From assembly GCA_036172245.1 (NCBI GenBank), contig JAYWIR010000118.1, positions 1 through 64,000 of the forward strand: DNA of 64,000 bases. Direction: 5' to 3'. Within the stretch, counting starts at the first letter, position 1. Every line of letters begins with the position of its first letter. The stretch comes from Raillietiella orientalis (lineage: Eukaryota). Made by a program: the position numbers and the translations under genes. Shown here one piece after another: positions 7,901 through 64,000 of the stretch. Under the pieces are notes generated by a model. It had not been told where the DNA came from. It searched no databases and saw nothing but the letters and a program-made list of their open reading frames with translations.

Positions 7901-9091
7901 CGTCGTTTCTTGCACTCCGTCGCCGCGTCAACCGATGCGGACTCCAGCTAGGGAGGGTGGCTGCGCTGTATCGGAAAAACCCAGGATTGTTCACCTGTCG
8001 CCCGGTTAACGGTAGTGCCTGGTTGCAGGAAACCGTACAAACGTGGGGACAGTTCGTCATGCAACGCTCTTAACAGGAACGAAGGTTCCTGTTAAGGGGT
8101 TACAGAAGTTGCACGCTCCGCGAGATTCTGGAGGATCCAAAGAAGAGTGCGTGGGCAGAAAGAACCACCCTCGCTGAAGCGCTTCCCTTCTCCATGGAAG
8201 ATCTAGACAGCGATGTTGCGGCGAAGTGGTTGGTTACAGTAACAATCTCCGGAAAGGAGAAGAAGATAGGAGAGTGGAAGACGGGCCAGTTAACAGACGC
8301 TGCGACCCCGAGTACGCCTCTCAATGGACTTCTGGGCTGTTGCGCGCTGCTCGATGTTCCCATTGAACATCTGAAGTGGACCCCGGTTCTCATGAACACT
8401 TCCGCCCTCCCCTTAAAATGGCAGGAGTCGGCTCTCCTGTTGCAGCACTGGGGACTTTCCTGCAACGCCCGCCGACACCACTGGACCTGGGGAGGGGTGG
8501 ACCGCAATTGCGTCAGGTGTGGGGAACGGGATTCCCTGCCCCACCTGCTAGTGAATTGTGTTTTCATTCGGCCCCTTTGGTTCCGCTTTGCCGAGGCCAT
8601 GGGAATCCCCTGCGGCAACCCCAGGGACGCACTGAAAGCCTCTTCTTTGCCGACGCCCTTCGGCCAGCGGCCTCGTTAGCAGCTTTGTTCTGCCAACGCG
8701 GGATCGTCACTGCTTGGTGCAAGGCTACGGGAGGACAACGCGACCAGAGTGCCATCCAGCCAGCCTCCCAGTTCCTGAGGAGGGCGTCTCGATAGCCCCA
8801 CCTGGATCCAGGAATACAGAAGGAGCTTCCCGGCATCCTGCAAAGGATGCAAAGGCCCCACCAGCAACTGTGATCCCTTCCCTTACCCTCCCAACTTTTC
8901 TTTTCTTTTTTGTTTTGTTTTTTGTTCTTCCCCTTTCCCCCTGCTGCCGTGGTGGACCGTACCGGTCTGCGAACCGGTGACCCGGCAGGCTCTGTGTTTC
9001 TTGGTGCGTGGCTGGAGCAATGCTTAAGCTACCGAACGTCTTTGTAAATGTTTATTTTACAATAAACGTCTTGGCGAAATCAGGGTGAAAA
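4914..9091 (+). mobile_element. Retrotransposon G (type E): ORF1 C-terminus, disrupted ORF2 (APE-RT-ZnF) and 3' end
   Basis: TAATG at 5293-5297; WNVNG, LQE, GDFN and SDH endonuclease motifs; KAFD, QGDSLSP and YADD RT motifs; ends GGGTG-AAAA at 9091. Confidence 0.92.
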
Positions 9092-9316
9092 TCGAATGCT
9101 TTGTGCAAATCTTCTGCTAGTGCCAAGGCTCTTGGCCTTTCTTTCGTCCGTCCGCACTGGCGCACGCAGTCAGCAGAAGGTCTTGCCGCTGTTCGGCTAT
9201 CCGCCGCAACGCGCTCTTGGTGCTACCACCAGGTGCGCGCGAAAAGAAGGTTCGCATCCATGGATCTAATCGGTAAAGCGTAAGACTGCTCCGGGCTTAC
9301 CAAGTACTCCGCAATT
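9092..9316 (-). mobile_element. 225-bp type-A RT fragment ending in KAF(D)
   Basis: Near-identical reverse complement of about 62699-62923 (element K), including a shared premature TGG TGG TAG. Confidence 0.85.
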
Positions 9317-9361
9317 ACATTTTATTTTACAATAAACGCATCGGTGAAATCCGGGCGAAAA
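9317..9361 (+). mobile_element. Isolated ~45-nt type-E 3' terminus (AATAAA plus hairpin)
   Basis: TTTATTTTACAATAAACGCATCGGTGAAATCCGGGCGAAAA matches the end of G. Confidence 0.8.
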
Positions 9362-9384
9362 TCGAACACCTTGTGCGCTCTAGG

Positions 9385-10518
9385 GCGGACGTGTTTTCTC
9401 GGTGCTCCTTCTGCCAGCAATTCTCCCGAAGTGCATGCGTCGTGTGATTCGGTGGTCGATGAGACAGCGATGCCTTACGCGACCACCAGGAATGGCCACG
9501 GGGCAGCAGCAACGCCGCCCCTAGAGGCGATGGAGGTGGAAGCATCCGTTCCAACAGAATCGGTCTTCGCTGCAGCGCGGGCGTGGAGCGCCGTTGTGTC
9601 GGCGCCATCGCCTGCAGCCGCGGCGGAATTGTCGGCCTATGTAGAGGAGGGGTACAACCCCTCATTGTTCTACAAGGTAGGCAATTTATATTCTGTAGAA
9701 AGCGCGCTCGCGTTCTCGAAGGGCAAGCGCGCTCTCGATGTAAAAGAGGAGGAGCTCAGCGATATGACCATCCGCAGCGGGGGTCAGTACGTTGAGGTCA
9801 TCTGCAAACAAACACAGCTTGCCCAAGGACGGCTTAAAACCTTCGTGGTGATGGGGACGCGCAGGCTCCTCCCTATTACGGCGTACCGCAGCATGGTGGT
9901 CCACCTGTTAGGTGTCACTGCGCGGATGCGCAAGGAACAGGTTCGCGCCGCGTTGGAGGAATACGGAACGGTCCACGCGCAGTGGACGAAAGTTAGTCCT
10001 TCCAAAGACTACACGGGGCTGCAACACGACCTCACGGCTGCGCGCGTGACCGTTCGGGAGGGCTGCACTCTTCTCCACAAACTGGTGGTCGAAGGCGTAA
10101 CCGTCGACTTCTGGTATGTGGGGAAGCCGAAATTCTGTGGCCTCTGCAATACGTCGGGCCACCTCAAAAAGAGGTGTCCCAACGTGCAATGCCAAGTATG
10201 CGGCACAATGTGTCACACGAGGGAGGCGTGCCCCAAAGCAGCAGTGCGGGTGGTTTCCAAGAGAAACCTTTAAAAACGCGCCCGGCTTCTGCAGAAAAGG
10301 CTGGCGGCGAAAGCTGCCGCGAAGGCTGTGCCACCCGCGCCCAAGAACCAGGCCGCACCCGAGACCCCGGCCACCAAAGCCGAAAAAGTTGAGGGTGCCG
10401 GCCAGGAGAATATGTGGCAATTGGCAACGGCCAAGAAATCAAAAAAGGAAAGGAGATTAGAGAAAAAGCTCTAAAAATTTATTTTACAATAAAAGCCCCG
10501 GCGAAATCCGGGTGAAAA
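9385..10518 (+). mobile_element. Retrotransposon E2: 5' end and partial ORF1 (9470-10273) fused to a ~45-nt 3' terminus
   Basis: GCGGACGTG at 9385-9393, ORF1 with two CCHC knuckles, 3' hairpin at about 10488-10518, imperfect ~14-bp TSD (9362-9375 and 10519-10532). Confidence 0.8.
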
Positions 10519-13500
10519 TCGAAAACCTTCTGGAGGTCGACTGCGACCGCCAAGGAACCGGGCTTTCCCTCCTGCCTTCGGCGCCGGTTCTTCTTGCCTG
10601 CTGCTGTGACTTTCGCCTAAGCCAGGCTTTGCTGCGCCACGACTTCCTGCAGCTGCATCCAAGTACGCGTGAAAAGGATGTTCGCCTCCATGGATCGTCC
10701 GGGAATCGCGTAGGTTTGTTCCAAGCTCACCACAGATTCCGCGATTGTTCCTAAGCGCGCGACCCACAGCTTGGAAAACAACTTGACGTCCGAGTTCTCC
10801 AAGGTGATCGGACGCCAGTTGTTGAGTTGACGCAAGTCTCCGCCTTCCGGCAGGAGACGCACCTTCGCTGAGCGGAAGGAATCCGGGACATTCCCGGATT
10901 CACTCATCAGCGTCGCGAGTCCCAACATGAAGGGAATGAGCTCCACTTCAAAGCACTGATAAAACTCTGCAGGAAGCCCATTCTCGCCTGGCGCCTTTCG
11001 TCTCTTCAGCCCAGCGATGGCGTACGAAAATTCATCCGCCGTGAAGGGCTCGTTGAGACGTTCGCGTTCCTCCTCGCCGACAACACGAGCATCCTGAGAC
11101 AGGAGTATCTCAGAAAGAATATCCTCCGTCAGGGATTCGGCGTACAGCGAGGAGTAGTAGCGTCTCACAATGCGGTGTACTTCGGCTGGGGCCGAACATT
11201 CCTGGCCCTTGTCGTCCAACAAGCATGCTGCTCCGGACTGCCAGACCTGGCGCTCGGCCCTCGCCTTGTACTTCGAAAGACGCCCGACATCCGCGAGTCT
11301 CGAAAACGTGCGGGCCTGCAGAAAGTCTCTACTGTTGGCAACGCCCTCTCCGAAACCGCGTGGAAGCCAATGCAAGGGGAATTGGCAGCAGAACTCGCGG
11401 ACAGATCTTTTGAGATCGTCCCAGTCCGCAAGTTCTTGAATGGCGAGGCCTCAAAGGTATCCACGTAGATGCTCCGCAGCCTCCGGTTGGCTAAGCCAAT
11501 CCGCCTGCATCCACCAGTTTTGCAACGGAGGCCCCCTGCCTGGCGGAAGGATCTCAAACTCCAACCTGTAGTGGTCAGAAAGCCTAGTCAACAATCTTCC
11601 TCTCCTACCCACACGCGACTGCAGGTATTCATCGAGGAAAACGTGATCGAGCGATCTTGCCATTCCAGGTTCGCCGACCATCAAGTTGACGGCGGAAACG
11701 GACGCGCACATCTCGATGGGCAGCGCGCGCTCCCTCGGGCGGCTCCAATCGTCGGAAAGCAGGCGGACGTTGAAGTCCCCAGCGACGAGGTGTGCCACTT
11801 GGAAGCCGGAGTTGTTGAGATAGTGGCTCTGCACCTCAAAGAAGAAAGCTACTCTTAATTTGAGGTAGCGAGAGCCACTCGGCGTGTAGACGTTCGTAAC
11901 GACGAGATCGATGGACTCGGACCACTTGATGACAAGCTGGCCTATCCGTCCATCGTCATCGAAACGAACACTATGCACCGCTTCCTCTATTTTTCCTTTT
12001 ACGAGGAACGCGACGTCGCACGTGTGTGCGCCGCCGCACCGCCAATGTAGCGTTCCGCCTGCGCGCTCCTCGATTTCGGTTGCCTGCTCGTCGGAGATTA
12101 CGTGAATCTCCTGCAGGAGCGCGAGGTCGAAGGGGCGCAGGGCGTTGGCTACTAATCGCATCTTCTCGTCGTTCTGTAGTCCGTTCACGTTCCAACACGT
12201 CACGGACAGACGACGAGAAGACGCGATTCCACGCATTACTGCTGGGAAGGTGGCAGCTTTTTGCTCGCTTTATCCGGCGAGCAGACGGCGAGTAGCACGA
12301 CTGGCTGGAGAGGACGGTCGCCACCGTCCTCTGTCGTGCTGCATGCATGTAATGCCTCCACGCCAGGCTGAACCCCGTCGGGTTTCGTGGAGACTTCGCG
12401 TTGCTTCGCGGCGAGCGTTGCCTGGCTGCCTACTTTTGATCGGCGCGCACACGCTTTCGAACGAGTTGTCCTCGTCTCGGTGATCGGAACGGCATCCATT
12501 TCGGAGTTCGACCGGCGCATGTTCGATCGGGTTTCGGCCTTCCGCGAAGCAGTGACAGGTTCTGCTGTATTGACATCTGTCCTGTTTTCGTTTTCCGTCA
12601 CCAGAGCATCGCTTTTGGTGACGGCTGCTTTCCCGGCGCGCGCGTTTTCAGCGTGCTCACGCGCAGAAGCACGAGGGACCTTTGCTGAAGTCTTCTTTAC
12701 TTCATTACGGTTACTCACTTCGCGTGGCGCCGTAAATGGAGATTGTGCTCCATTGCCATCTTTGAAGCCATCCGCGTCTTTGGACGGGAGCACTTTGGAT
12801 GGCTTCGACACGCTCGTCATGGACGCTGCCTTCGGAAGGGCTTTTAATCCCTTCGTTGGCATGGCATCCGCGCCAGTCGAGAGCTTGCTCTCCGATTGCG
12901 ACGGCGTGAGATTTTTCTCCGCTTTCGCCGTTTTGGATCGCAACGCGGATTTTTTTTTCCGACTTTCGAACTCGACACGGCACAACCCTTCTTACCCGAT
13001 TTGGGCTTCTCAGCCACTGCAGGAGGTGAAGGAATGGATCTGAAGGTAATGGAAGTGTCCTTACCGCCGTTGTCCATTGACGTCCCCGCCGGTTGCTCGA
13101 ACTCCGAAAGAGCCGGGCGTGCTTGGTTAGGACAGCTATTGCGCCCAGGGGGACTTACCATTGCCCCGGATTCCCCGCACCCTTTCTTTTGCGGCTCCCC
13201 TGCCGCGAGAGGGGGCGCGCAGGGCTTCGCGTGCGAGGTTTCCTGCTGCTTTGGGGCGACATTCCGCCTCGCGTTTCTTCGGAATTTCTGCCGTGGGGTC
13301 TCCAGGTTTTTCGCAGATTTTTTCTTTTTATCCGCGCTTTGTTTCTTAAGATGAAGCTATTCGGCTGCCTTTTTTCGCAAAAGATCCGGGCAATTTTTCA
13401 ATTGATGCCCGGATAGTTTGCAATAACGGCATTTTCCAGAGGGGCATTTATCCAAACAATGTTTCTCCTTCCCGCATTGCTCGCACGTTCTTACTTTGCC

Positions 13501-14231
13501 GACGAACCACAGGTGAACGATTGTGTCTTTCACTTGTAGTGTGGTGGGCAGCAGACGGCGGTCCGGCATTGTAAGCCGGACTCCAGCGACTCCGTTGTGT
13601 ATGTACGGGAAGTCCTTGAGGTTGCTACGCTCCCTCCACAGCGCATGGACCGTGGCGAATTCCACCAACGCGTTCCGAATGTCAATATCGAAGATTTCCG
13701 ACTCGATGTCGAAAATCTCCGCCACAAATGAGTCGTCCATGGCGGCCGGGAAGACCTTCTGGCCACGGATCGACAACGGGGTGCGCAGCAAGCGTTGCAC
13801 AAGTGCAGCGTCTTTGCAACGCACCTTGAAATAGCCCATGTCTTTTACGTGCATAATGGCGAAAAGGTCCTCTTCCCGCACGCCAACACGGGTCAATTCA
13901 TCGTTGAACTGATTCCCGTCGCGCGCAGAAAGAAAGCCACTCACCTTATATCGGAGAGCAGGTCTATAGCCTTGGGCTACGTATGCCCGCAACTCCGACT
14001 CGTCGAGTGGTTTCCCTTTGACGGCTGCTGTGGCAGCAACGTCAGCAAAACTCCTCTCCATTGGTGAGAAAGACGAAGTGGAGGCGGCCGTAGGTTCCGC
14101 GATTGCAGATCCGGATGCTGTTCCTCCAACTTCAGTAGCTTCAAGTTGGGTCGACATCGTCGTCAAAATGTACGACGCCAAGATGAAGCGGATGAAAGCA
14201 CGGAGACGAGAGCGAAGAAAAGCACGTCCGC
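10519..14231 (-). mobile_element. Retrotransposon B (type A): 5' end, ORF1, and ORF2 up to the KAFD motif, where it is interrupted
   Basis: Closely similar to copy A. ORF1 pieces 13357-14181 and 12236-12985, TAATG at 12238-12234, APE 11451-12236, RT start 10617-11375. Confidence 0.92.
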
Positions 14232-14556
14232 ACTCGATTGAAATTTATCACCCGGTCACGCCGGGGCGTTTATTAATAATAATAAACTGGTCAGGGACAA
14301 TGTCCCCAACCAACAGAACGACAGAGAACATAGAAAAATTACCGCCACGCAGGCCTGGTAAACAAACCGCTCGCAGCGTGGGGGGAATGAGGGGAAACAA
14401 ACAAAAATCCAAAACTGGAGGGAAGGGAAAAGGGTTTTTGGTTAGGCTCCGTACTCACGGGGATTTAAACGATGAGCACCTCAAATGTTCCGGAGCCTAT
14501 GGGGACGCGGGTGTAAAAGAAAATACAAATTTAGTTTATGGAGGGTAGGGCAATGA

Positions 14557-17500
14557 TCACCGGGTTGGCCGCTGATGAGGGTGTGTAAACCGGCGGTGTA
14601 TTGCGGCGAGATTCCTCTTTGTCTCCTCTGTCAAATGAGGCCATCTAGCGGATGCTCCCATGTAGAAGGATGCTTTGCTGATTACCTCTTGGTACTGTCC
14701 GTTGATTACCAACGCCTGGCGGACGGAAACTATCGCGCGTATGCAACCGATGGTTGCAATCCTTGCGCTTACTGAAAGCCCGCTCGGCGTGAAGAATCGT
14801 CGCAGCAAGTCTCTTGCGGTGTCCACGGGATGCAATAGTGCTGTTGCCAGCCTACGCCACAGTCCTTGTAGGACACCGCAGTCCAGAAGTAGGTGCGGAA
14901 TCGACTCCGTCGATCCGCACCGAACGCAGTTCGCAGACGCAAGTCCCCCGGAGTCACGATGCCAACGCTCGTTGCACTGAAAACCCCAGTGAACGAAAAG
15001 CAGCACGGCTTGTTTCCAAGCAAGAAGGAGCAGCCAAATGTCCATACACTGTGGAGGGACTACAAGTTCTTCGGGGGTGACAGCAAGTTCTTCTGCCCAC
15101 CGGAGGAGTCCCTTTGCAGTAACACGAGGAGTGGCGGCGTCCGCCAACTCACTTGTCTTCCAGGTGCCAAGGAGTTTGGTTCTTCCCGCTATCGTGCAGG
15201 AAACCTCCCACCTCGCCGGTTGGTAACTATCGTTTCTTGCCCTGAGGGCAGACAGCGCTGCGGCAAGAGGCGTGGCAGCCAGGGTAGAAAACTTCACCTC
15301 GTCCTGCAGTACTTCTTCCAAGGATCGTGGAAAAAATTGGCGCAGGGGGCGAAGATCTTCAGGGCGTATTCCTTGGAACGCCGCCCAGGATTCAACAGAC
15401 TCCTGCCGCCAAGCTTCAAAGTTCATTGGGCGGCAGGAGATCCCAGAGTGTGCTTCCAGAAGTGCGGTCAACTGCCGCAATGGAAACCCGAAACCCCGCT
15501 TCCTGTATTGAGTGCCCGGCAAAAGCGAGAGAAATCCTCCGCTGCCGGCGCATCTCCGCAGGAGAATGCGAGCTGGCACGCACAGGGGGGATGTCCATAG
15601 CTGGGCACACAGTGCCAGCAGTCGGAACTGCACCTGCAGTCCGATTCGCTCCATTGTCAGGATACCCAAACCAGCATCCCGACGCGGAGCTGACAAATCT
15701 TTAAGGCGGATCCTGGATCTCGCCGGACCCCAGAGAACGTTCCTGAGCAGGCGCTTAGCCCGCTGTTTTGCCGCATAGGGGGGGTCCAAAACAAAAAACA
15801 GGGGACGGAGGAGGGGGGCCACAAAGGTGTTCCAAATAGTCGCCCTATCCTGCAAGGTAAACTTGCCGTTAAAGAACGGGCTGATGGCCAACTCTGCTTT
15901 CTGAAGACAGTCCGCCCACGCTTCGGCTGCGCCGAAAGCGCCCAACGGAACGCCAAGGTACTTAAAGTACCCGCCCGTGGGGATCCCCAGGCGGAGCCAG
16001 TCGGACTGCCCCTCCCACGACGTACCCACAGGAACGACCACGCTCTTCTCTCTGTTCACGCTCACGCCCGCTCCCCGACGAATCAGGTCGAAGAAATCCT
16101 CGACACTGGACGCCGGGGTGGACATGAGGAGCAGAAGAAGCAGGTCATCAGCGTAGGCGGCCACGGCAGGCGTTCCCGGGCAGGAGCTTGGCAAGTGAGA
16201 CAGCGTCAGCCTGTATGCTCTTAGCACCAACTCAAAGAAGATGCTGAAGAGCAACGGGCTTAAGCTGTCGCCCTGTCGGATGCCCCTACGAACGGGAATA
16301 CCATACACGCGACAGCCGCTAAAAGTGATGCAGGTTAGCGCGTGGCGCCAGCACGCGCGCAAATACAGCAGGAGTTGCGCCGGGAACCCAAAGCGTTCCA
16401 TAAGCTCCAAAAGCAGCTTCTGGTTTACGCAGTCGAACGCCTTGTGGAGATCGACCGCGACCGCCAAGGCACCTGGCGTTCCCTCCTGCCGTCGGCGCCT
16501 GTTCTTTTTGCCTGCGGCAGTGACTTTCGCAGCAGCCTGGCTTTGCTGCGCCACAACTTCCTGCAGCTGCATCCATGTACGCGCGAAAAGGATGTTCGCC
16601 TCCATGGATCGTCCCGGAACCGCGTAGGTTTGTTCCGGGCTCACCACAGATTCCGCGATTCTTCCTAGCCGCGCGACCCACAGCTTGGAAAACAACTTGA
16701 CGTCCGAGTTCACCAAGGTGATCGGACGCCAGTTGTTAAGTTGGCGCAAGTCTCCGCCTTTCGGCAGGAGACGCACCTTCGCTGAGCGGAAGGAATCCGG
16801 GACATTCCCGGATTCACTCATCAGCGTCGCGAGTTTCAGCATCAAAGGAATGAGCTCCACTGCAAAGCACTGATAAAACTCTGCAGGGAGCCCATCCTCG
16901 CCTGGCGCCTTTCGTCTCTTCAGCCCAGCGATGGCGGACGAAAATTCATCCGCCGTGAAGGGCTCGTCGAGACGTTCGCGTTCCTCCTCGCCGACAACAC
17001 GAGCATCCTGAGACAGGAGTATCTCAGAAAGAATATCCTCCGTCGGGGATTCCGCGTAGAGCGAGGAGTAGTAGCGTCTCACAATGCGGCGTACTTCGGC
17101 TGGGGCCGAACATTCCTGGCCTTCGTCGTCCAACAGGCATGCTGCTCCGGACTGCCAGACCTGGCGCTCGGCCCTCGCCTTGTACTCTGCGAGACGCCCG
17201 ACATCCGCGCGTCTCGAAAACGTGCGGGCCTGCCGAAAGTCTCTACTGTTGGCCACGCCCTCTCCGAAACCGCGTGGAAGCCGGTGCAAGGGGAATTGGC
17301 AGCAGAACTCGCGGACAGATCTTTTGAGATCGTCCCAGTCCGCAAGTTCTTGAATGGCAAAGCCTCGGAGGTATCCACGTAGATGCTCCGCAGCCTCCGG
17401 TTGGCTAAGCCAATCCGCCTGCATCCTCCAGTTTTGCAACGGAGGCCCCCTGCCTGGCGGAAGGATCTCAAACTCCAACCTGTGGTGGTCAGAAAGCCTA

Positions 17501-18150
17501 GTCAACAATCTTCCTCTCCTGCCCCCACGCGAATGCAGGTTTTCATCGAGGAAAACGTGATCGAGCGATCTTTCCATTCCAGGTTCGCTGACCATCAAGT
17601 TGGCGGCGTGCACGGACGCGCACATCTCGATGGGCAGCGCGCGCTCCCTCGGGCGGCTGCAATCGTCGGAGAGCAGGCGGACGTTGAAGTCCCCAGCGAC
17701 GAGGTGCGCCACTTGGAAACCGGAGTTGTTGAGCCAGTAGCTCTGCACCTCACCAAAGAAAGCTACTCTTTCTTCGAGGTAGCGAGAGCCACTCGGCGCG
17801 TAGACGTTCGTAACGACGAGATCGATGGACTCGGACCACTTGATGACAAGCTGGCCTATCCGTCCGTCGTCATCGAAACGAACACTACGCACCGCTTCCG
17901 CCATTTTTCCTCTTACGAGGAACGCGACGCCTCACGTGTGTGCGCCGCCGCACCGCCAATGTAGCGTTCCGCCTGCGCGCTCCTCGATTTCGGCTGCCTG
18001 CTCGTCGGAGATTACGTGAATCTCCTGCAGGAGCGCGAGGTCGAAGGGGCGCAGGGCGTTGGCTACTAATCGCCTCTTCTCGTCGTTCTGCAGTCCGTTC
18101 ACGTTCCAACACGTTACGGACAGACGACGAGAAGACGCGATTCCCCGCAT
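14557..18150 (-). pseudogene. ORF2 of A: APE endonuclease, reverse transcriptase and C-terminal zinc finger, with one in-frame TGA at 17934-17932
   Basis: 72-aa and 1115-aa ORFs in the same frame; B has TGC at the stop position. WNVNG, LQE, GDFN, SDH, KAFD, QGDSLSP, YADD and CVRCG..H...C motifs. Confidence 0.93.
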
Positions 18151-20071
18151 TACTGCTGGGAAGGTGGCGGCTTTTTACTCGCTTTATCCGGCGAGCAGAC
18201 GGCGAGCAGCACGACTGGCTGGAGGGGACGGTCGCCACCGTCCTCTGTCGTGCTGCATGCATGTAATGCCTCCACGCCAGGCTGAACCCCGTCGGGTTTC
18301 GTGGAGACTTCGCGTTGCTTCGCGGCGAGCGTTGCCTGGCTGCCTACTTTTGATCGGCGCGCACACGCTTTCGAACGAGTTGTCCTCGTCTCGGTGATCG
18401 GAACGGCATCCATTTCGGAGTCCGACCGGCGCATGTTCGATCGGATTTCGGCCTTCCGCGAAGCAGTGACAGGTTCTGCTGGATTGACAGCTGTCCTGTT
18501 TTCGTTTTCCGTCACCAGAGCATCGCTTTTGGTGACGGCTGCTTTCCCTGCGCGCGCGTTTTCAGCGTGCTCACGCGCAGTTGCACGAGGGACCTTTGCT
18601 GAAGTCTTCTTTACTTCATTACGGTTCCTCACTTCGCGTGGCGCCGTAAATGGAGAGTGTGCTCCATGGCCATCTTTGAAGCCATCCGCGTCTTTGGACG
18701 GGAGCACTTTCGATGGCTCCGACACGCTCGTCATGGACGCTGCTTTCGGAAGGGCTTTTAATCCCTTCGTTGGCATGGCATCCGCGCCAGTCGAGAGCTT
18801 GCTCTCCGACTGCGACGGCGTGAGATTTTTCTCCACTTTCGCGGTGTTCGATCGCGACGCGGATTTTTTTTTGCCGACTTTCGAAGTCGACACGGCACAA
18901 CTTTTCTTACCCGATTTGGGCTTCTCAGCCACTGCAGGAGGTGTAGGAATGGATCTGACGGTACTGGAAGTGTCCTTACCGCCGTTGTCCATTGACGTCC
19001 CCGCCGGTTGCTCGAACTCCGAGAGAGCCGGGCGTGCTTGGGAAGGACCGCTATTGCGCCTAGGGGGACTTACCATTGCCCCGGATTCCCCGCACCCTTT
19101 CTTTTGCGGCTCCCCTGCCGCGAGAGGGGGTGCGCAGGGCTTCGCGTTCGAGGTTTCCTGCTGCTTTGGGGCGACATTCCGCCTCGCGTTTTTACCGAAT
19201 TTCTGCCGTGGGGTCTCCAGGTTTTTCGCAGATTTTTTCTTTTTATCCGCGCTCTGTTTTTTAAAATGGAGCTCCGCGGCTGCCTTTTTCGCAAAAGATC
19301 CGGGCAATTTTTCAATTGGTGCCCGGATAGTTTGCAATAACGGCATTTTCCAGAGGGGCATTTATCCAAACAATGCCCCTCGTTCCCGCAGTGCTCGCAC
19401 GTTTTTACTTTGCCCACGAACCACAGGTGAACGACCGTGTCATTCACCTGTAGTTTGGTAGGCAGCAGACGGCGGTCCGGCATTGTAAGCCGGACTCCAG
19501 CGACTCCACTGTGTATGGACGGGAAGTCCTTGAGGTTGCTACGCACCCTCCACAGCGCATGGACCGTGGCGAATTTCGCCAACGCGTTCCGAATATCAGT
19601 ATCGGAGATTTCCGACTCGATGTCGAAAATCTCCACCACACATGAGTCGTCCATGGCGGCCGGGAAGACCTTCTGGCCACGGATCGACAACGGGGTGCGC
19701 AGTAAGCGTTGCACAAGTGCAGCGTCTCTGCAACGCACCTTGAAATAGCCCATGTCTTTTACGGGCATAATGGCGAGAAGGTCCTCCTCCCGCACGCCAA
19801 CACGCGTCAGTTCATCGTTGAACTGATTCCCGTCGCGCGCAGAAAGAAAACCACTCACCTTATATCGGAGAGCAGGTCTATAGCCTTGGGCTACGTATGC
19901 CCGCAACTCCGACTCGTCGGGTGGTTTCCCTTTGACGGCTGCTGTGGCAGCAACGTCAGCAAAACTCCTCTCCATTGGCGAGAAAGACGAAGTGGAGGCG
20001 GCCGTCGGTTCCGCGATTGCAGATCCGGATGCTGTTCCTCCAACTTCAGTAGCTTCAAGTTGGGTCGACAT
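18150..20071 (-). pseudogene. ORF1 of A (two CCHC knuckles), with one frameshift in an A-run near 19287
   Basis: ORFs 19070-20095 and 18150-19361 overlap; B has one more base in the same run. Confidence 0.88.
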
Positions 20072-20145
20072 CGTCGTCAAAATGTACGACGCCAAGATGA
20101 AGCGGATGAAAGCACGGAGACGAGAGCGAAGAAAAACACGTCCGC

Positions 20146-21183: not shown

Positions 21184-21525
21184 TGAAGGGATGTCATGGA
21201 GTATGTAGCTTGCTTTCTGCGAATGGCAACCTGATAATACCACCTGGGAAATCTGCAGAAGGACCTCTTCGGCATTCTGCAAAGGATAGAAACACCACGC
21301 AGCGAACAGTGTTCACTTCCGCCCATTAAAAGGACTATGGTTCTCTGTGTTCTCAGTTTCGTTTATTTTTATTTTTGTTTTCCTCTTCTGCTTCCGCTGA
21401 CGTGGAGTGTCAAGTCGGTCTGTGCACTGACAATCCGGCAGCTATGTTTTATTGGTTGCAGCGGGGCCCTGTAATGAAAATACCGAAAGCATTTTAATAA
21501 ACGCCCAGGCTTGCCCGGGTGAAAA
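21184..21525 (+). mobile_element. 5'-truncated degraded type-F-like element (ORF2 tail and 3' end)
   Basis: RDVMEYVACFLRMAT..DLFGILQRI resembles the F/N C-terminus; AATAAA at 21496 and hairpin ending GGGTG-AAAA. Confidence 0.75.
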
Positions 21526-30010: not shown

Positions 30011-30149
30011 TGAGGTAAGGAAGCAACATCAAGGCTCCGTGAAATCCGATGCTCAACTCGACGGTCCGTCTTCCTGTCTCTTCTGCTGGTGCCTGATCTT
30101 ACAGGCAATCGAATTGCAGCCCAATTTCCGAAAACTGGCCCTGCAATGC

Positions 30150-41454: not shown

Positions 41455-41539
41455 GCGTGCTGCTATAGCCGCTGTCTGGGGACCCCCTGGGGCACCAAGG
41501 GGGAGGTGTCCCAGGGGAAGGTGTAAATAAAAAATTTCT

Positions 41540-50797: not shown

Positions 50798-53150
50798 ACG
50801 CCAAGTTGATAGCCAAGATGTAAGCAGAGCGTCTAAGACGGGTTGCCAACATCTTCATCAGCCCGGAACAGACATATGCTGTTCCCGGGCAGAGCATGGA
50901 GGCGAACCTGTTTCACGCTTCCACCTGGCTAGAGCTCCAACATGGAAGGAGCTTGGTGCGCAGCCGGAATTCCGGTGCGTGCGCCGGCAAGGGGTTGGAT
51001 GGTCGGGTGGGAGAGGGAGCCCTTGCGGTCCCAATCGACTTGCGGAAAGCATTCGATTGCGTCGACCAGAATCTCCTTCTGGAGCTTCTGGAACGCTTGG
51101 ACTTTTCGGCCTCATAAGTGGCCTATCTGCGCCCCTGCTGGCGCGACGCGCTCATCAATGTTACTTTCAGCGGGCAGACCGTGCACGGCGTGCCGGTGCG
51201 GCGTGTGATCCGTCAGGGAGACAGCCTGAGCCCCTTTCTCTTCAGTACCTACTTTGAGTTGGTACTGAGAGCGTACAGGGGAACTCTGGCGCACCTGCCG
51301 CACGACTGTGGGGGTACGCCGGCCGTTTCAGCATATGCGGACGACCTTCTGCTACCGCTCCCTATGTCCACCCCGGCTGCGGCGGTCCAGGAGTTGTTCG
51401 ACCTGCTGCATCGGGGAACCGGTCTTACGGTGAACAGAGCGAAGTCTTCTGTGATGCCAGTTGGTGCGGCGTGGGCAGGGCAGCAGGACTTGGCCCGTTT
51501 GGGGATCCCCACGGTGAGGTACTTGGTGTACCTTGGTGTGCCGTTGGGGGACTACTCCCCTGCAGTAGCGTGGTCCGGCTGCCTCCAAAAAGTAGAGACG
51601 GCGATCGGCCCGTTCCGAGGCGGCATTTGTTTCCTGTCTGAACGGGCCGCGGTTTGGAACACGTTCGCGGCTCCACTTCTTCGCCACCTGCTTTTTGTTT
51701 GCCCCCCCACAGAGAGAATTAAAAAGCGGACAAAGGACCTCCTCCGTATCGGCCTTTCGGGCAACGGGAGGTCTTGAGTGCGCTTAAAGGACTTGTGCGC
51801 TCCTCGTCGGGAAGGTGGTCTGGGCCTTCTGACGCTGGAACGGCTGGAGCTTCAGCTCCAGTTCCGATTGTCGGCACTGGTTTCAGAGTTGTGGTGCACC
51901 TCTCGGTGCGTCCCTGCACGTCTCCTTCTCCAGCAAGCCACCGGCAAGACGGGACTGACGTCGTTTCTTGCACTCCGTCGCCGCGTCAACCGATGCGGAT
52001 TCCAGCTACGGAGGGTGGCTGCGCTGTATCGGAAAATCCCAGGAGTGCTCACCTGTCGCCCGTTTAACGGTAGTGCCTGGTTGCAGGAAACCGTTCGAAC
52101 GTGGGGACAGATCGGCATGTAACGCTCCCAACAGGAAGGAAGGTTCCTGTTTGGGGGTTACAGAAGTTGCACGCTCCGCGAGATCCTGGAGGATCCAAAG
52201 AAGAGAGCGTGGGCAGGAAGAACCCCCCTCGCTGCTGCGCTGCCCTCCCTGATGGAAGATCTGGACAGCGATGTTGCGGCGAAGTGGGTGGTTACAGTAA
52301 CAATCTCCGGAAAGGAGAAGAAGGTAGGAGAGTGGAAGACGGGTCAACTGACTGACGCTGCCACCCGAATTGCGCCTCCTCATAGACTTCTGCGCTGGAA
52401 CACGCTGCTCGACGTTCCCATTGAACGTCTGAAGTGGCCCCCGGTGCTCATGAACACCTCCACCATTCCCTTCAAATGGCAGGAGTCGGCTCTCCTGTTG
52501 CAGCACTGGGGACTCCTCTTCAACGCCCGCCGACACCACTGGACCTGGGGAGCGGTGGACCCCAATTGCTTCAGGTGTGGGGAACAAGAGTCCCTCCCCC
52601 ACTTGCTAGTGGATTGTGTTGCCGTTCGGCTTCTTTGGTTTCGCTTTCCCGCGGCTATCGAAATCCGCTGCGGCAACCCCAGGAACGCACTGAAAGCCCT
52701 CTTCGTTGCTGATGCCCTCCGGCCAGCGGCCTCGTTAGCAGCTTTGTGCTGCCTACGCGGGATGATCACCGCTTGGAGCAAGGCTACGTGAGGTCGACGC
52801 GACCAGGGTGCCATCCATTCAGCCTCCCAGTTCCTGAGGAGGGCGTCCCGATGGCCCCATCTGGATCCAGGAATAGAGAAGGAGCTTAGAGGCATCCTGC
52901 AAAGGATGCAACGGCCCCACCAGCAACGGTGATCCCTTGCCTTATCCTCCCAACTTTTCTTTTCTTTTTTGCTTTGGTTTTAGTTTTTCCCCCTCCTTCC
53001 TGCTGCCGTGGTTTACCGTACCGGTCTGCGAACCGGTGACTCGGCAGGCTCTGTGTTTCTCCGTGCGTGGCTGGAGCAATGATCCAGCCACTGCACGTCT
53101 TTGTAAATGTTTGTTTCATAATAAACGCCCCGGCGAAATCCGGGTGTAAA
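50798..53150 (+). mobile_element. Retrotransposon M (type E): disrupted RT, zinc finger and 3' end
   Basis: Closely similar to G 6741-9091; ends GGGTG-TAAA at 53150. Confidence 0.92.
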
Positions 53151-53542
53151 TCGAGCGCTTTGCAGAGATCGGCGGCGTCCGCGAAGGTTCTCGACGTTCC
53201 ATCGTGCCTTGAACACCGACGCTTACCTTTGGCTGCGGCGATTTCGTCTGCCTGGCTCTGCTGCGCCACGCACTGCGGCAACTCGAACCATTTTCTCGCG
53301 AAGAAGAGATTGGCGTCCATGGACCGCCCCGGAACAGCATACGTCTGCTCCGGACTTACCAAAGACTCCGCGATTCTTCCCAGGCGCCCGATCCATAGCT
53401 TGGAGAACAACTTGACGTCCGAATTCACCAAGGTGATGGACGCCAGTTGCTGAGGTTACGCAAATCACCGCCTTTCCTCAGGAGCCTCACCTTTGCTGAG
53501 CGGAAAGAAGCGGGAACATCTCCCGTCTCACGCATCAGCGAC
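53151..53542 (-). mobile_element. Type-A RT fragment L, cut at KA(L)D by M and upstream by K
   Basis: LMRETGDVPASFRSAKVRLL, NSDVKLFSKLW and DLCKALD. Confidence 0.85.
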
Positions 53543-56500
53543 GGTCGGGTACGGACGTGCTTTTGCATCACTCCGCGGTAGGTTGGCTCTTGTGTGTTTT
53601 TGTTCTGCTGTGCTTCTGTGCTGCAATGGGAGCAAAGAAGAACATGAGCCGCAAGAAGGGAACGCCACCTGCTCCTGAGACGGCTGCTTCGGCTGCTAGC
53701 AAGGAGCCTCTGTCCTCGCCGAAGGCGAGGAAATTCGCCCAGATCGCTGCCCTCGCGTCTACGATGGGACCTTCGCCCGACAGCCCTGAGCTTTAGGCGT
53801 ATGTAGCAAATGGCTACACGCCTGCACTCAGGTATAAGGTAAGTGTCCTTATGCCTGAGCGGATTGCGCGCAAGTTTGGCCAGGAACTCCAACGGATTGG
53901 AGTTCAGAAGGCCAACTGGATTCCATCATGCCCATTAGTGCGTGCGACTACTGAGAGGTGTCCAGTAAGGACGCTCTCCTTACGCAGCGTTTGCTGCAAA
54001 CGCCGCTGCTCATTCGTGGGGAGGAGATACTCCCTGTCACAACGGACCAGTCTTTCGTTGTCCGGCTCAGTGGAGTGTGTAAGGGCCTTTCGGACTTCCA
54101 GGTCGTTGAGGCCCTTGAAAAATTCGCTACCGTCCACGCGCTTTGGAGGCTGCCAAACCCTGCTGAAGGGTTCGAAGACCACCACAGCGTGCTCGCGCAA
54201 GTGCGAGTGACGATGACGTATCGCCGTGCAATGCCCAAGCGACTGCAGGTGGATGGAATGACCGTCCGCCTGTGGTTTGCCGGGCAAATGCGTGTATGCG
54301 CGGAATGCGGGCAGGAGGATCACCGCATTACGAAGTGTCCCTCGGCAGCTTGCCGTTACTGCCACGAGCACGGACACACTAAAGAAAAGTGCTCAAGGCT
54401 CCTTTTAAAAAACGAAAAGCGCAGGAACGAATCGCGTTTCGCATTGCGAAATAATCGCCGCGATGTTTCTCGCCCCGCAAAGAAAGGGTGAAAAACAAAG
54501 AAACTCGTCGCGGCAAAGCCTCCGGCTATCGACCCGAAGGAAGCTCGCGAAGGATGCGACATTTCTACGAGACCTCGCAGCCAATTGTTGAATGCAGGAG
54601 ACATTGTGCCGAAGGTCAAAAAGCCTCCTACTGTCTTCAATCACGACCGCGAAGCCTCGTACCAAGGCCTCGACAAGCGGCGCGGAATGCGGTCGTTCGC
54701 CCGATACGGGAAAAACACGCCCGCGAGCAAAGAACACCGCGCTGTCTGATGCTACCGCGGCCAAGGTGCCCCAGGCGCCGAATGCCACGAAGAAACAGCC
54801 GGAAAACCCGCAGTACTCGCGCGCTGATGCAGCGCCTACTGCGGTCGAGGAAGAAACTGCTAGAGCGAGCACAACCGCTACAGCAGTGCCCCCAACGGTC
54901 GCAAAGGCAACGCGCGAACCCTCCCATCTGGAACAGGCAGCGCCTCTCGCGATCGCTAAGTTTCCCTAAGTCCCACAAGGGGTGGAGTAAGTTTCTTTTT
55001 CTATAAAAATACAATATTTACATTCGCACTCTCATTCACTCAATACAAACATTTTAAACACGGGGGTCCTTGGGTTGCACTAGAGCTCTGCTTTCCAGGG
55101 GGGAATTCCAGCTGGATGGTCCCGGGCGTCGTCCTGGATCCTCTTCAGGATGAATCGGTACGTCCAGGCGTGGATCTTCCCGCAGTTCCTGATGCCGATT
55201 TCCCCCTTCAAGAGCCCTTGTAGGATCTCCATCGGTGGTGCGGCTCTCCTGGGTTTCCTCATTTTCCACCACCGCACAAGTATGGCGGTGATGAAGAGGG
55301 CTATGGTCGTCCTCACCATGGGATTGTAACAGGGAACATTACCATCCCCATGAAACATCCCGGCGAAGATCTCCATAACGGACTTGTTGGTAAGTCCTAT
55401 GATCCTTTTCAATCAGCCAGTCATGCAGCAGTGTGGGACACGTCAAGACGTGAAGTCTCGTGTCGTCGTCTTTACATGCTGCGCAGTCTCGGTCTTCTCG
55501 TCTTCCTGTGAAGTGCTGCAATCGGGACCCACTCTGGATTCCTCCGTGATAAAACATCAGGAGGTCATCCTGGGTGCCCGGCGGAAGGTCACTCCTCCAG
55601 AGCGTCGTGCCTATCGCCAACACGTTGAACCGTTCACTCCCGTAGCGTTCGGTGGCTTCCTGGAGGGCACTGGTGTCACGGTCGTTTTCTTGGATAAGCC
55701 TTCGGAGGTTTGTTCTGGTTACCCTCGACCATGCGAAGTCGTTGTGGTTGAACCACACTTCGCGGGTCCTTTGGGTAAACCTTCCTAACATCATCTCTGT
55801 ATACCGAATTATACAAGTTTGATGTAGGTAGCCTCCTCGCCTCCACTCCTGGATTTGCAGTAGGGTAACTCTGGACCGCTGGTAGATCCAGCTTCTCGTG
55901 TCCGGCGGGACAGGAAGCATCCAAGGGATCACCAGGATGGACTCGTCCTGCCAGAGTTCCCTGCTTCGCGGCACGATCTTGATTTGGTGCTTCCGCACCA
56001 GCCGTTGCTTCCTCCTCCAGGTCGGGTCGATTGTTATCCATTCCCCTACTTTGCCTAGCAGCGCAGTCATCAGGCCTTTCGAGCTGTTAAGCAACAACGT
56101 GTAGGCCCTGTGCGCCGCATACGGCCAGTCATCCCAGTGAGTGGCAATGTTCAGGATGTGTCGCGTATCCATGATTTCCGTGGAATGTGCAAGCGACTTC
56201 ATCCCGGAACCGCCTTCTTCCCTGGGACAACACAGAGGTTTCAGTCTTATCTTGGGCGATAGTGGCCCCAGAGTGTTTTTCTTTGCAGCTTGTCGAACTC
56301 CCTAGTAGTGTCGTTGTTCATCCTCGCAGAGGCCGCCCCGAAGAGCACTTTCAAAAGGAGTACTCCGTTTCATATGTTGGCCATTCGCTTCATCCCAAGG
56401 TCCGTTCGGGTGTACTTGGCTGCTTCCTTGGCCATTTTCCCCAGGATTTCCTTCAACAGCAGCTTCGACGCAGAGTCGTCGCCGATGTAGACGCCCAGGT

Positions 56501-59500: not shown

Positions 59501-62500
59501 ATCCAAGGATCACCGCTCCCTCCCTCAACTTCATCTTGGCGATCATGTCGCCAGAAAATATATTTCCAGAGAAGTTCTGGAAATCGAGGTCCAGGACTTC
59601 CCCAAACCGCTCCAAGTAATTCCACACCGCTAGTTGCGGTGTGAGGATGAAGATGCCGTTTAAAAAGACGGTTGTGTATGGCATCTCGCCAATACCACAA
59701 ACCATCCGTCCTTGTATATTGATCCCCTTCTGGATCAATCGCTCTCTAATGTTTTCACAGTCTGTAAAGACTGTGAACCCGTTGTTTGATGGAATGATCG
59801 CCTGAATGCGATCAAAGTCTATGTCCGTCTTGTCGAGGGACAAATGGACCTCCCTGATGTTATTAAATTTTATTATCCCGGTCTTGAAGATAATGGGCTC
59901 CACGTTGGGGCCTATTTCGACTATTGGTCGGTCCACTTTTAGAACTTTTCCGCTAAGCGACTTACCAAATTTCCTAGGTGGGTGGACACTCGCCTGTCCA
60001 GCGGCCACCGACGCATAAGAAAAGGGCTGCGACGCCGCAGCCGAACAATATGGCGTCGCTCCCTGTACCGCGTGGACTCCCGCGGGTCCCGCCTATGACG
60101 CCGCCGCCGCGGGCGCAAACCTCGACGTTACCGCCTTTACCGCAGCGGGCGGCACCATCGGCATGCCTGCCGCCACCTCGCCGTTGCCGCACGTTACCTC
60201 CATGGCTTCCATGGGGGACGATGGCCTCACCACTCCTCCAACTCCAGATGTTTGCATCCTAGCAGCTGTTCCGGCTGCTCGGGACGACAACAGGACTTCC
60301 ACCGTAGACTTCTCGGCACTGCTGCTGCTGCTGCTGATGGTCCCCGGTTGCACTCTTTCCACACTGGCGTTCACTCAAACACTTGCCCTCTCAGGGCACT
60401 CAAAAATTGCCTTGACAGTGGTTTTAAACTGTGCCTTGGAGGGGTATTGGGTATAGTTTTAAACTAGCAATAAACACGCCTCCCTTTCGTTCAGCGGCGG
60501 CGATACCGCCCGTGCGCAATGCTCTCGCGATCGCTAAAGGAGTTGCTTAAGCCTGCGTGTAAACAGCACTCCAAGAGGCAGCAAGGAAACGCCTCTTACA
60601 TCCGTGGAAGCAGCGCCATCTCAGGATGGCAAAGATAACTGCGACGCGAAGGAAGACGGCTGGATGCAGGTGAGGACGATCATTAGAAAGAAACCATCAA
60701 GGTCTTCGCAGCTCTGTGTGAAGGTGAGTGGGCAAAAGAAACCCGCGAAACCTTCCCAGAAAAAGATTGCGATTCTTTCCTCCTGCGCAGGCGTGCTCTC
60801 GCGGATGGAGTGGGAAGCTGCTGCTGCGGCAAAAAGAAAGAAAGTCCAAGCCGCAGATGCAGAAAGCGTTAGGAAACAGGCAGCGAACGATTTTTCTAAT
60901 TCCGGGAAACAGCAGCAGCGCCTAGCAAGCCCTAGACTGTCGGATTCTGATCCAGAGTCCGACAGAAAGAGCACACAGCGCGACAACCGCCCGAAACCGC
61001 GCAATCGCCTCCCGAAGACCCGCAAGCGCGTGGTTGCCGAGCAGGAACTGTTGCTGGGGAACAAAGAGTAGGAAAAGGACCACACGTCTGAGCTACCGGC
61101 AACAAGCAGTGCGGCTTCGAATGGAGATTTCCAGTCTCCGAGATCGACCGCTCTGTCTCGTGACCACTCGCCGGACAAGGCGAGAAATCTGTGCTCACCT
61201 CCCCAGCCTTAATGCAGGAAGTCGCCTCTTTTCGTCGATTCAGCGTAGCCTGTTGGAACGTCAATTAACTGCGCAGGGATGGAAAGAGGCGCGACGTGTC
61301 AGACACCCTGCGACATTTCGATTTGGCGGTCCTCCAGGAGATGCATTACATCTCCGATGCGGAGGTTGCCGAAATCGAACAGCGCGCGGGTGGCACCCTG
61401 TACTGGCGAGAAGGTTCTGCACAATCGTGCAAAGTAGGTTTTCTCGTCAACAGTAGTATGGCGGGAGCAGTGCGCAGCGTTCGATTTGACCAGGAAGGGC
61501 GAATGGGCCAACTTGTACTCAAGTGGTCAGATTCAATCGACCTCGTAGTAACGAACGTCTACGCGCCGAGCGGCTTTCATCGGCGTGTCGAAAGAATCAA
61601 GTTTTTCAAACTGCTGAAGAGCCAATGGCTCATAAACTCCGGAGCCAGAGTGGCGCATCTCGTCGCAGAGGAATTCAACGTCCACCTGCTTTCCAACGAG
61701 ACGCGGTCCCTGGCGGAACGGTCGCGGGTGGAAGAGGCATGCGCGTCGGTGCACGCGCGTAAATTGGAAGCCGGCGAGCCTGGACTAGAAAGGTGCGTGG
61801 ATCACCTCTATTTCGATGAACACCTACTCTCGCGAGTGGGAAATAGAGGCAGGGTGCCGTCCACGTTATCGGACCATGATAGGCTGGAGTTCGAGCTACT
61901 CCCGCCGGGCAAGGGACCTGCAAACAATGTTTGGAGGATGCCGGCGGATTGGCTGAGTTATCCGGAAGCGGCGGAGCATCTTCGCCAGTTCCTTCGCGAC
62001 ATTGCCATCCGGGAACTCGCAGACTGGGACCATCTTAAAAGATCGGTTCGCGAATTTTGCGACCGGTTCCCCCTGCACCGGCTTCCACGCGGCTTCTGGG
62101 GAGGCGTGGCCAATAGCAAAGCATTTTTGCAGGCCCGCACCTTCTCGAGACTTGCAGAAGTCCGGCAACTCGCAGAGTTCAAGGCGAGGGCCGAGCGCCA
62201 GTTCTGGCAGTCTGAAGCGGCTATTCTGCTCGACGACCAAGGCCGGCAATGCACGGCTCCTGCCTAAGTGCAGCGAGCACTAAAGCGTCACTTCTCCTTG
62301 CTCTACGCTAATTCGTCGACGGAAAGAGTCCTTTCCGAACTACTTTTGCCGCAAGCTGCACATGGCATCGGCGAGGAGGAACGCGCTCTTCTCGACGAGC
62401 CCTTCACGTTGAAGGAAGTTTCTTCCGCCATCGCAGAACTCAAGAGACAAAAGGCGCCAGGTAAGGACGAACTGCCCGCGGAGTTCTATCAGAGCTTCGC

Positions 62501-62923
62501 GGCGGAACCGGCACCACTGGTGCTTAGAATCTCGACGCTGATGAGGGTGACGGGCGATGTCCCTTCTTCCTTCCGCTCAGCGAGGGTGCTCCTTCCGAAA
62601 GGAGGGGATCTGCGCCAGCTAAAGAACTGGCGTCCGATCACATTAGTGAATACGGACGTCAAGTTGTTTCCGAAGCTGTGGGTCAAGCGCTTAGGGAAAA
62701 TTGCGGAGTACTTGGTAAGCCCGGAGCAGTCTTACACTTTACCGAATAGATCCATGAATGCGAACCTTCTTTTCGCGCGCACATGGTGGTAGCATCAAGA
62801 GCGCGTTGCGGCGGATAGCCGAACAGCGGCAAGACCTTCTGCTGACTGCGTGCGCCAGTGCGGACGGACGAAAGAAAGGCCAAGAGCCTTAGCACTAGCA
62901 GAAAATTTGCACAAAGCATTCGA
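53543..62923 (+). mobile_element. Retrotransposon K (type A-related): 5' end, ORF1 split by J, and ORF2 up to KAFD
   Basis: ACGGACGTG at 53551, knuckles at 54296-54392, TAATG at 61210, APE and RT N-terminus, HKAF(D) at 62910-62923. Confidence 0.88.
54960..60521 (-). mobile_element. Retrotransposon J: full-length (5562 bp) divergent L1/Tx1-type element with perfect 16-bp TSD
   Basis: CTCTCGCGATCGCTAA at 54944-54959 and 60522-60537. ORF1 with three CCHC knuckles (59151-60008). ORF2 SWNANG, LQET, GDLN, SDH, KAFD, QGDSLS, YADD and CAAC..H...C, with several frameshifts. Confidence 0.93.
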
Positions 62924-64000
62924 TTTTCACCCTGATTTCGCCGGGACGTTTATTGTAAAATAAACATTTACAAAGACGTGCGGTGGCTGGACCATTGCTC
63001 CAGCCACGCACGGAGAAACACAGAGCCTGCTGGGTCACCGGTTCGCAGACCGGTACGGTGAACCACGGCAGCAGGGGGGAGGGGGAAAAACTAAAACCAA
63101 AGCAAAAAAGAAAAGAAAAGTTGGGAGGATAAGGCAAGGGATCACCGTTGCTGGTGGGGCCGTTGCATCCTTTGCAGGATGCCGGCAAGCTCCTTCTGTA
63201 TCCCTGGATCCAGATGGGGCCATCAAGACGCCCTCCTCAGGAACTAGGAGGCTAACTGGATGGCACCCTGGTCGCGTTGACCTCCCGTAGCCTTGCTCCA
63301 AGCGGTGACGATCCAGCGTAGGCAGCACAAAGCTGATAACGAGGCCGCTGGCTGAAGGGCGTCGGCAACAAAGAGGGCTTTCAGTGCGTCCCTGGGGTTG
63401 CCGCAGGGGTTTCAAATGGCCGCGGCAAAGCGAAACCAAAGGGGCCGAAGGGCAACACAATCCACTAGCAGGAGGGGGAGGGAATCCCGTTCCCCACACC
63501 TGACGCAATTGGGGTCCACCGCTCCCCAGGTCCAGTGGTGACGGCACGCGTTGCAGGGGAGTCCCCAGTGCTGCAACAGGAGATCCGACTCATGCCATTT
63601 TAAGGGAATGGTGGAGGTGTTCATGAGCACCGGGGGCCACTTCAGACGTTCAATGGGAACGTCGAGCAGCGTGTTCCAGCGCAGAAGTCCATTGGGAGGC
63701 GTACTCGGGGTCGCAGCGTCTGTTAACTGGCCCGTCTTCCACTCTCCTATCTTCTTCTCCTTTCCGGAGATTGTTACTGTAACCAACCACTTCGCCGCAA
63801 CATCACTGTTCAGATCTTCCATAAGGGAGGGCAGCGCAGCAGCAAGGGGGGTTCTTCCTGCCCACGCCCTCTTCTTTGGATCCTCCAGGATATCGCGGAG
63901 CGTGCAACTTCTGTAACCCTTAAACAGAAACCTTCGTTCCTGTTGGGAGGGTTGCATGCCGAACTGTCCTTACGTTCGAACGGTTTCCTGCAACCAGAAA
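62924..64000 (-). mobile_element. Retrotransposon O (type E): ORF2 tail and 3' end, runs off the right edge
   Basis: Similar to G and M; zinc-finger region; terminal hairpin ending GGGTG-AAAA at 62924. Confidence 0.92.

Follow-up and report, generated by a model that had tools for sequence, protein, structure and literature searches.

PMC4640811 and PMC5035012 list as targets of long interspersed nuclear elements (LINEs) the genes for rRNA, tRNA and small nuclear RNA (snRNA), spliced-leader exons, microsatellites, telomeric repeats and transposons, and insertion of Tx1 in Tx1D sets a precedent for a transposon as the target (PMC6719617). Here we consider a stretch of 64,000 nucleotides from Raillietiella orientalis (assembly GCA_036172245.1, contig JAYWIR010000118.1, positions 1 to 64,000 of the forward strand; hereafter, the window), which contains nests of related LINEs. 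One family from these nests, type E, is very probably a target-specific LINE of the L1 group with an endonuclease of the apurinic/apyrimidinic (APE) type, its target being the coding DNA for K(A/V)(F/L)D, a stretch of reverse transcriptase (RT) motif A, in related LINEs, collectively the A clade.

Among the closest described systems, Tx1L of Xenopus laevis, like type E, is an APE-type LINE with a specific target sequence inside another transposable element (PMC6719617). The target of Tx1L, however, is the DNA transposon Tx1D, whereas that of type E is the coding sequence of a catalytic motif in a related LINE. Type E also shares with R1 and R2 (28S rDNA), TRAS/SART, Keno, Mutsu, NeSL and Utopia the habit of inserting precisely, in a fixed orientation, at a single bond within a conserved multicopy sequence; the targets of these elements are host genes or simple repeats, while the multicopy "gene" used by type E is the RT of rival retrotransposons. 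It is to an APE-type endonuclease that PMC4640811 and PMC1919474 ascribe the specificity of the R1 and Tx1 clades.

Two other systems are similar to the window in arrangement. The Zepp and Zepp-like L1 LINEs of green algae resemble it, as the window also has GC-rich nests of LINEs inserted in LINEs. On the other hand, the accessible excerpts on Zepp give no single-nucleotide target or motif, while type E hits other families and so far not itself, always in the antisense orientation; we also count as a difference that an aldo/keto-reductase-like exon separates the two nests of the window. CNL1 of Cryptococcus is reported to insert preferentially into its own copies, in arrays (PMC12810828); it is R2/MoTeR-like and subtelomeric, with the specificity stated to be undefined, and its target is itself or telomere-like rather than the RT motif of a relative. 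A full-text literature search yielded no LINE aimed at the RT motif of another LINE, although the primary Zepp literature may hold relevant detail.

Position and orientation of the type-E ends

The window comprises two nests of related retrotransposons that lack long terminal repeats (non-LTR elements), at approximately 1–21.3 kb and 43–64 kb, separated by DNA with few LINE pieces; the G+C content is 55–65% at both window ends versus 42–52% in the middle. As read from the translations, open reading frame (ORF) 1 of the elements contains two CCHC-like knuckles, while ORF2 codes for an endonuclease of the APE type and for an RT, and Pfam models for both domains (PF03372 and PF00078) were found in ORF2 of elements A, D and G (the letters are those of Table 1). 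The best solved relative is human LINE-1 ORF2p, with E = 1.2e-43 compared with about 1e-16 for R2, and hence the window elements are APE-type non-LTR retrotransposons (LINEs) of the L1 group. The ORF1 translations show RRM-like and CCHC parts, although Pfam zf-CCHC scored in element X alone; we take this composition to be compatible with either the Tx1 or the L1 clade.

All families share the 5' terminus G(C/A)GGACGTGYTTTT, of which there are seven copies in the window, and a 3' terminus consisting of AATAAACGCCCCGGCG-loop-CCGGGTG and a short A-rich tail (nine copies). An alignment fold gave no covariation for this 3' hairpin (four predicted pairs, none compensatory, the stem being nearly invariant). 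The hallmarks by which target-primed reverse transcription (TPRT) is recognised are present, that is, duplications of 17, 16, 14 and 8–11 nt, both 5'-truncated and full-length copies, and a defined 3' end.

We define type E by the loop GAAAT, which is present in five of the nine element 3' ends, namely at 9061–9091, 9331–9361, 10488–10518 and 53120–53150 on the plus strand and at 62954–62924 on the minus strand. In all five, (A/T)AAA directly adjoins TCGA, and after it come, in antisense, the codons by which an A-clade LINE specifies K(A/V)(F/L)D. The five junctions (J1–J5) had been placed by a preliminary description of this DNA, and reading of the sequence confirms that TCGA begins at 9092, 9362, 10519 and 53151 (plus strand) and at 62923 (minus strand). 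Empty homologous sites are likewise found where that description had put them, in A (16433–16443) and D (46413–46423) and in the type-E elements themselves (G, 6989–6999; M, 51046–51056); further empty KAFD sites, beyond those described, are present in C (2808–2818) and X (56971–56981).

The 33-nt pattern used in the preliminary description has four copies at three or fewer mismatches, with none expected (100 shuffles); the fifth type-E end (9331–9357) is more decayed and was recovered with a looser motif. For the full junction pattern, GGGYGWAAATCGARNNCYTT, there are five matches versus 0.00 expected. The same breakpoint is seen from the host side. A tblastn search with the intact 1124-aa ORF2 of A identified four antisense host pieces (9348–9091, 12014–10518, 53437–53150 and 61434–62924), all of which end at residue 500, the D of KAFD. 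The position and the orientation of the insertions are hence directly observed, although up to two T could come from either partner, since some relatives, such as D, G and M, read GAT TG past the cut, and thus the position of the nick is uncertain by 0–2 nt.

The four remaining 3' ends, which have the same hairpin architecture and another loop, serve as a control. That of C (4913) adjoins the linker of G, the end at 37751 adjoins non-LINE DNA, that of D (48499) adjoins antisense APE codons, and that of A (14245) adjoins the 5' end of B. Thus, a KAFD flank is observed for 5/5 type-E ends versus 0/4 non-E ends (Fisher p = 0.0079).

Independence of the insertions and re-use of a site

If all junctions had descended from a single ancestral chimera of a type-E element and its host, the inserts and the hosts should have diverged equally. 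This is not the case: the long type-E parts (G, M and E5) are 87.6–91.8% identical pairwise over approximately 1000 nt, while the host parts K, L and B have 68–72% mutual identity (B being 92% identical to the intact A), and a single chimera is therefore excluded. In a maximum likelihood tree based on 390 nt of upstream sequence, counted from the site, G and M form a clade with C, and the hosts are placed outside it as K+K', A+B, L and D. The groupings of inserts and hosts also disagree: the hosts K and K' share 97% identity, but the most similar pair of inserts is M and E5 (91.8%), not G and E5 (90.7%).

At J1, K' is 96.9% identical to K 62699–62923 (its tblastn span being aa 414–500). In ten bins of 100 nt before the junction, G and E5 have 86–96 identical positions per bin (91/100 in the adjoining one), whereas past the junction K' and K match at 98/100, 95/100 and 25/25 positions; hence the identity changes stepwise exactly at the junction (Fisher p = 0.0011). 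The junction at 9092 is a separate, fifth hit in a second copy of K. Since E5 is closer to M, which resides in L, than to G, two diverged type-E copies must have entered two nearly identical copies of K.

The far side of an insertion can be seen for J3, the only junction of an element whose 5' junction also lies within the window. There, the 14 nt TCGAACACCTTGTG (9362–9375) precede nine filler nucleotides (9376–9384) and the 5' end of E(h) at 9385. This stretch is identical to the B site (10519–10532) at 12 of 14 positions and to the empty site of A, the sister of B, at 13 of 14; furthermore, A at position 7, changing KAFD to KVFD, occurs among 11 RT sites only in this copy and in B. The 14-nt repeat itself is directly observed, and from its sequence we read it as the left copy of a target-site duplication. 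Its length falls in the range of the other duplications located in the window (17 nt around 36350–37751, 16 nt around the U4-X unit described below, and 8–11 nt around A). As the duplicated copy retains the downstream host flank, the site was rebuilt, and the end of E2 (9317–9361) lies precisely there. For a rebuilt site that is used again, TPRT predicts just the succession seen here: E2, duplication, E(h), duplication, B. The upstream part of E2 was probably split off by the later insertion of K'.

Thus, we count five independent events; the host copies, four in number and of three lineages, are K', L and K, each hit once, and B, hit twice. A target-specific LINE is recognised by independent copies inserted at the same nucleotide in the same orientation, and type E qualifies as one because this holds for 5/5 of its ends in the window. 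The preliminary description was right in that several A-clade LINEs carry type E in antisense at a single nucleotide of their KAFD codons and that B was hit twice (by E(h), with the duplication to its left, and by E2 on the rebuilt site), and its concern about a common chimeric ancestor is answered within the window by the non-congruent groupings and unequal divergences. Its reading of 9092 as a copy of the K junction is not supported, since the type-E parts of J1 and J5 are only 91% identical up to the junction and the host parts are 97% identical.

Table 1. Inserts, hosts and control elements at or near the KAFD junctions.
Feature	Position	Strand	Description
G, type-E LINE, insert of J1	4914..9091	+	linker, ORF2 (APE + RT, frameshifts), 3' untranslated region (UTR), 3' end ...GGGTGAAAA; 5' part removed at the 3' end of element C; last 1 kb 88–91% identical to M and E5
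K', K-family host fragment (RT aa 426–500), host of J1	9092..9316	-	stops at GA of the KAFD Asp codon
E2, terminal 45 nt of a type-E element, insert of J2	9317..9361	+	decayed hairpin, tail GAAAA; 35–39/47 identical to other type-E ends
Putative left copy of the 14-nt target-site duplication (HKVFD codons) from the entry of E(h) into B	9362..9375	-	
E(h), ORF1-only derivative, insert of J3	9385..10518	+	full 5' end (GCGGACGTG...), 47-nt type-E 3' end
B, A-family LINE, host of J2 and J3	10519..14233	-	5' end to KAFD codon: ORF1, APE, RT aa 2–500
A, full-length A-family LINE	14245..20147	-	open ORF1 and open 1124-aa ORF2; KAFD site empty; tandem upstream of B
M, type-E LINE, insert of J4	50798..53150	+	RT aa 389 to 3' end ...GGGTGTAAA; own KAFD site empty
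L, fragment (RT aa 369–500) of a host from a third A-clade lineage, host of J4	53151..53543	-	ends at KALD codon; 74–76% identical to A, D, B and K
K part 1	53544..54959	+	5' end, ORF1 and linker; belongs to a full-length A-clade LINE split by U4-X
K part 2, host of J5	60538..62924	+	linker, APE, RT to KAFD codon; aa 2–500, 65% to A
E5, type-E 3' part (ORF2 C-terminus and 3' UTR), insert of J5	62925..64000	-	continues beyond the window
D, A-clade LINE, unoccupied control	43260..48499	+	open 1036-aa ORF2; KAFD site empty; 3' end adjoins antisense APE codons of another element
C, sister lineage of type E, control 3' end	1890..4913	+	non-E loop; KAFD site empty; 3' end adjoins the linker of G

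The ORF1 of E(h) is open and has two CCHC-like knuckles, and there is no ORF2. It may be a non-autonomous, ORF1-only partner sharing just the terminal recognition module with type E; this is a single copy. Its host B has 90% amino acid identity to A and stops at aa 500.

Proposed mechanism and alternative explanations

The APE domain of G passes the PF03372 threshold, and its translation carries WNVNG, LLQE, GDFN and SDH, presumably the catalytic motifs of APE-type endonucleases. We suggest that the endonuclease of type E would recognise the duplex coding for KAFD and would nick the sense strand of the host immediately past ...AARGNNYTCGA, which lies within the Asp codon (with the tolerance of 0–2 nt). 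The freed 3'-OH would then prime reverse transcription of the type-E RNA from its G(A/T)AAA tail, located behind the conserved short hairpin; type E is always antisense to its host because it is the nicked sense strand that would serve as the primer. A cut of the second strand approximately 14 nt away would duplicate the HKAFD codons, and the complete site would be rebuilt on the side keeping the downstream host half, thus being open to a further hit. In this scheme we infer that the site is read by the endonuclease and not by another part of ORF2p or by the RNA, and likewise in what order the nicks are made, what part the 3' hairpin plays and in what way the 5' end becomes joined.

The type-E elements have KAFD codons themselves, and their own sites, of which there are two only, are empty. 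The half-site AAAGCATTCGA upstream in these elements does not differ from the one in K, a host that was hit. Self-avoidance or immunity of type E is not established: four of six A-clade copies are occupied versus none of four others (p = 0.076).

Specificity for the KAFD codons should be distinguished from a short nicking preference, such as YTCGA, combined with regional targeting to LINE nests, in which case the hits in KAFD would simply reflect the frequency of the motif in RT genes. The retained side of the five sites indeed has only about eight invariant bases, and AARGNNYTCGA itself is enriched in the window owing to the RT genes (15 matches versus 3.0 expected, 11 of them, including all five occupied ones, in the RT context). 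The occupancy of 5/11 in the RT context and 0/4 outside it does not differ significantly (p = 0.23). However, a 5-nt motif would occur on the order of a hundred times per 64 kb (a rough estimate from its length and the base composition), while all five insertions are at one homologous codon position and in a single orientation, and the re-use of the rebuilt B site points to reading of the sequence on either side of the nick; we therefore consider such a preference unlikely.

Even less probable, in our opinion, is that only few of the events are real and the rest are copies, one or two chimeras having been multiplied by segmental duplication or by read-through retrotransposition (3' transduction). 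Such copying could explain the 97% identity between the host flanks of J1 and J5, the match of the last 47 nt of G and E5 at 45/47 positions, and the length of K', which at 225 nt is a possible size for a read-through tail. It does not fit the very different divergences of the type-E and host parts, and a transduced K' would still record a separate insertion of type E in K, its type-E part differing from E5 by 9%. We rejected 3' transduction as the sole origin of the host flanks, as B and K reach through the APE domain and ORF1 to their own 5' ends, which transduction cannot yield. Similarly improbable is an origin without any endonuclease targeting, be it template switching or recombination at a fragile or antisense transcription-start position in the A-clade RT genes, or errors of assembly. 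Template switching does occur here, as U4 snRNA and element X are fused within one duplication, at least one part of the nest has been rearranged, and no downstream host half is found beside any type-E 5' end. But a switch between sense RNAs would produce the same orientation and not the antisense one, and insertion is consistent both with the duplication of 14 nt at J3 and with the tandem order of E2 and E(h). As for the assembly, the type-E 3' ends and the antisense KAFD codons have no shared homology by which an assembler might be misled, and five identical breakpoints in diverged sequence are unlike a collapse.

Several observations weigh against insertion targeted to the KAFD codons. The tblastn search with the ORF2 of A found in the window no host piece beginning at residue 501, and no intact host half downstream of KAFD is located in the window beside any type-E 5' end; the far side is documented by the J3 duplication alone, and that with two mismatches. 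The approximately eight invariant bases of the retained half-site are also present in the KAFD DNA of type E itself, which nevertheless is empty, and no type-E copy of the window has an intact ORF2, as G and M carry stops or frameshifts. To the left of D, where the split element should continue, there is unique non-LINE DNA (42266–43260). This failure of nesting and the fact that all evidence comes from one 64-kb window are the main weaknesses. The absence of the other host halves mostly follows from nesting, as each insertion shifts the older left parts beyond the window edge.

If true, targeting of the DNA for a catalytic RT motif of its own relatives by a LINE would be a new kind of niche. 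Such a target is multicopy and harmless to the host, is renewed by amplification of the victims and, being under functional constraint, is hard to mutate away. Type E may, as the preliminary description proposed, gain a safe harbour, eliminate a competitor and place an antisense transcription unit in it. This would be a concrete example of competition between transposon families and would offer a testable sequence rule for the origin of nested LINE clusters of the Zepp type, as well as adding to the APE endonucleases one whose target is defined, at roughly 11–25 nt, and which is open to biochemical characterisation.

A possible second target and the structure of the nests

A and B are arranged head to tail on the minus strand, and each is preceded by ATTTCAAT(CGA) (14234–14244 and 20148–20158). 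These are the codons that specify GDFN in the APE region of k (20151–21330), an E-like element. It looks like two successive sense-orientation insertions of the A family, B and then A, into one rebuilt site, and hence an endonuclease motif may be the specific target of the A family in its turn. Elsewhere in the window, the GDFN sites (in G, D, A, B and X) are empty. A network of LINE families, each landing in the codons for a catalytic motif of another (type E in KAFD, the A family in GDFN of k), is conceivable but rather doubtful. If it exists, mutual targeting of sequences that the victim can hardly change would amount to transposon warfare and would be a sequence-level mechanism for nested LINE clusters of the Zepp type.

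In the right nest, K was inserted into L, M into L, another element into M, and E5 into K. The chain of the left nest includes B, E2, K', G, C and two further minus-strand elements, one with the 5' end at 1889 inserted in C, and one with the 5' end at 536 inserted in the former. Strict Russian-doll nesting throughout the window was considered and rejected, as it fails left of D; deletions or rearrangements thus also happened here. D itself has its 3' end on antisense APE codons (48500) and unique DNA on the 5' side, which suggests that DNA was deleted upon insertion or rearranged afterwards.

The two parts of K (53544–54959 and 60538–62924) make up a single full-length element, which is split by the U4-X unit, with a 16-nt duplication on both sides of the latter. 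The unit (54944–60537, minus strand) combines a complete U4 snRNA (60386–60523, 73.5 bits) with X, a more distant LINE that is fused to it by the 5' end; ORF1 of X is at 59151–60092 and ORF2 at 55339–58775. The flanking duplication, TTAGCGATCGCGAGAG, may be counted as 14–16 nt, since its final AG overlaps the first two bases of U4. Chimeras of snRNAs and LINEs formed by template switching are known from mammals, and the U4-X unit resembles them.

Full-length 5' ends stand head to head with antisense LINE bodies at 1881–1889, 50789–50797 and 53544–53559. The breakpoints, at about aa 169 in C, aa 389 in M and about aa 367 in L, differ in position, and no common target is evident. For the pair of L and K, twin priming was rejected: the overlapping RT parts are only 68–74% identical and hence belong to different elements.

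Outside the window, the 3' motif AATAAACGYCCCGGCG-N3-4-CMGGGTG had no exact matches in metagenome, prokaryote-genome and viral contigs, and a 55-aa peptide across the K junction had no match among longer proteins. A protein-guided scan of metagenome contigs produced 18 loci, all of them distant (22–35% identity). The search with the ORF2 protein of A, in which 8000 candidates were scored, gave 12 hits, one of them close (P0001, 58% identity, KAFD intact).

In the lower-GC DNA between the nests, there is an aldo/keto-reductase-like exon (32077–32451, minus strand; PF00248, E = 3.7e-07), and thus the nests flank ordinary genic DNA. A 5'-truncated LINE copy with a non-E loop (36350–37751) lies in non-LINE DNA between a perfect 17-nt duplication, CAAGCAACTCGCCTTTG (36333–37768 in the window). 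This copy is an internal control, showing that relatives of type E insert outside LINEs as well, with ordinary duplications. A tandem repeat with a period of 24/48 nt (2.4–4.7 copies) is located at 50437–50549, within the N-terminal coding part of ORF1 of the minus-strand element at 48500–50797.

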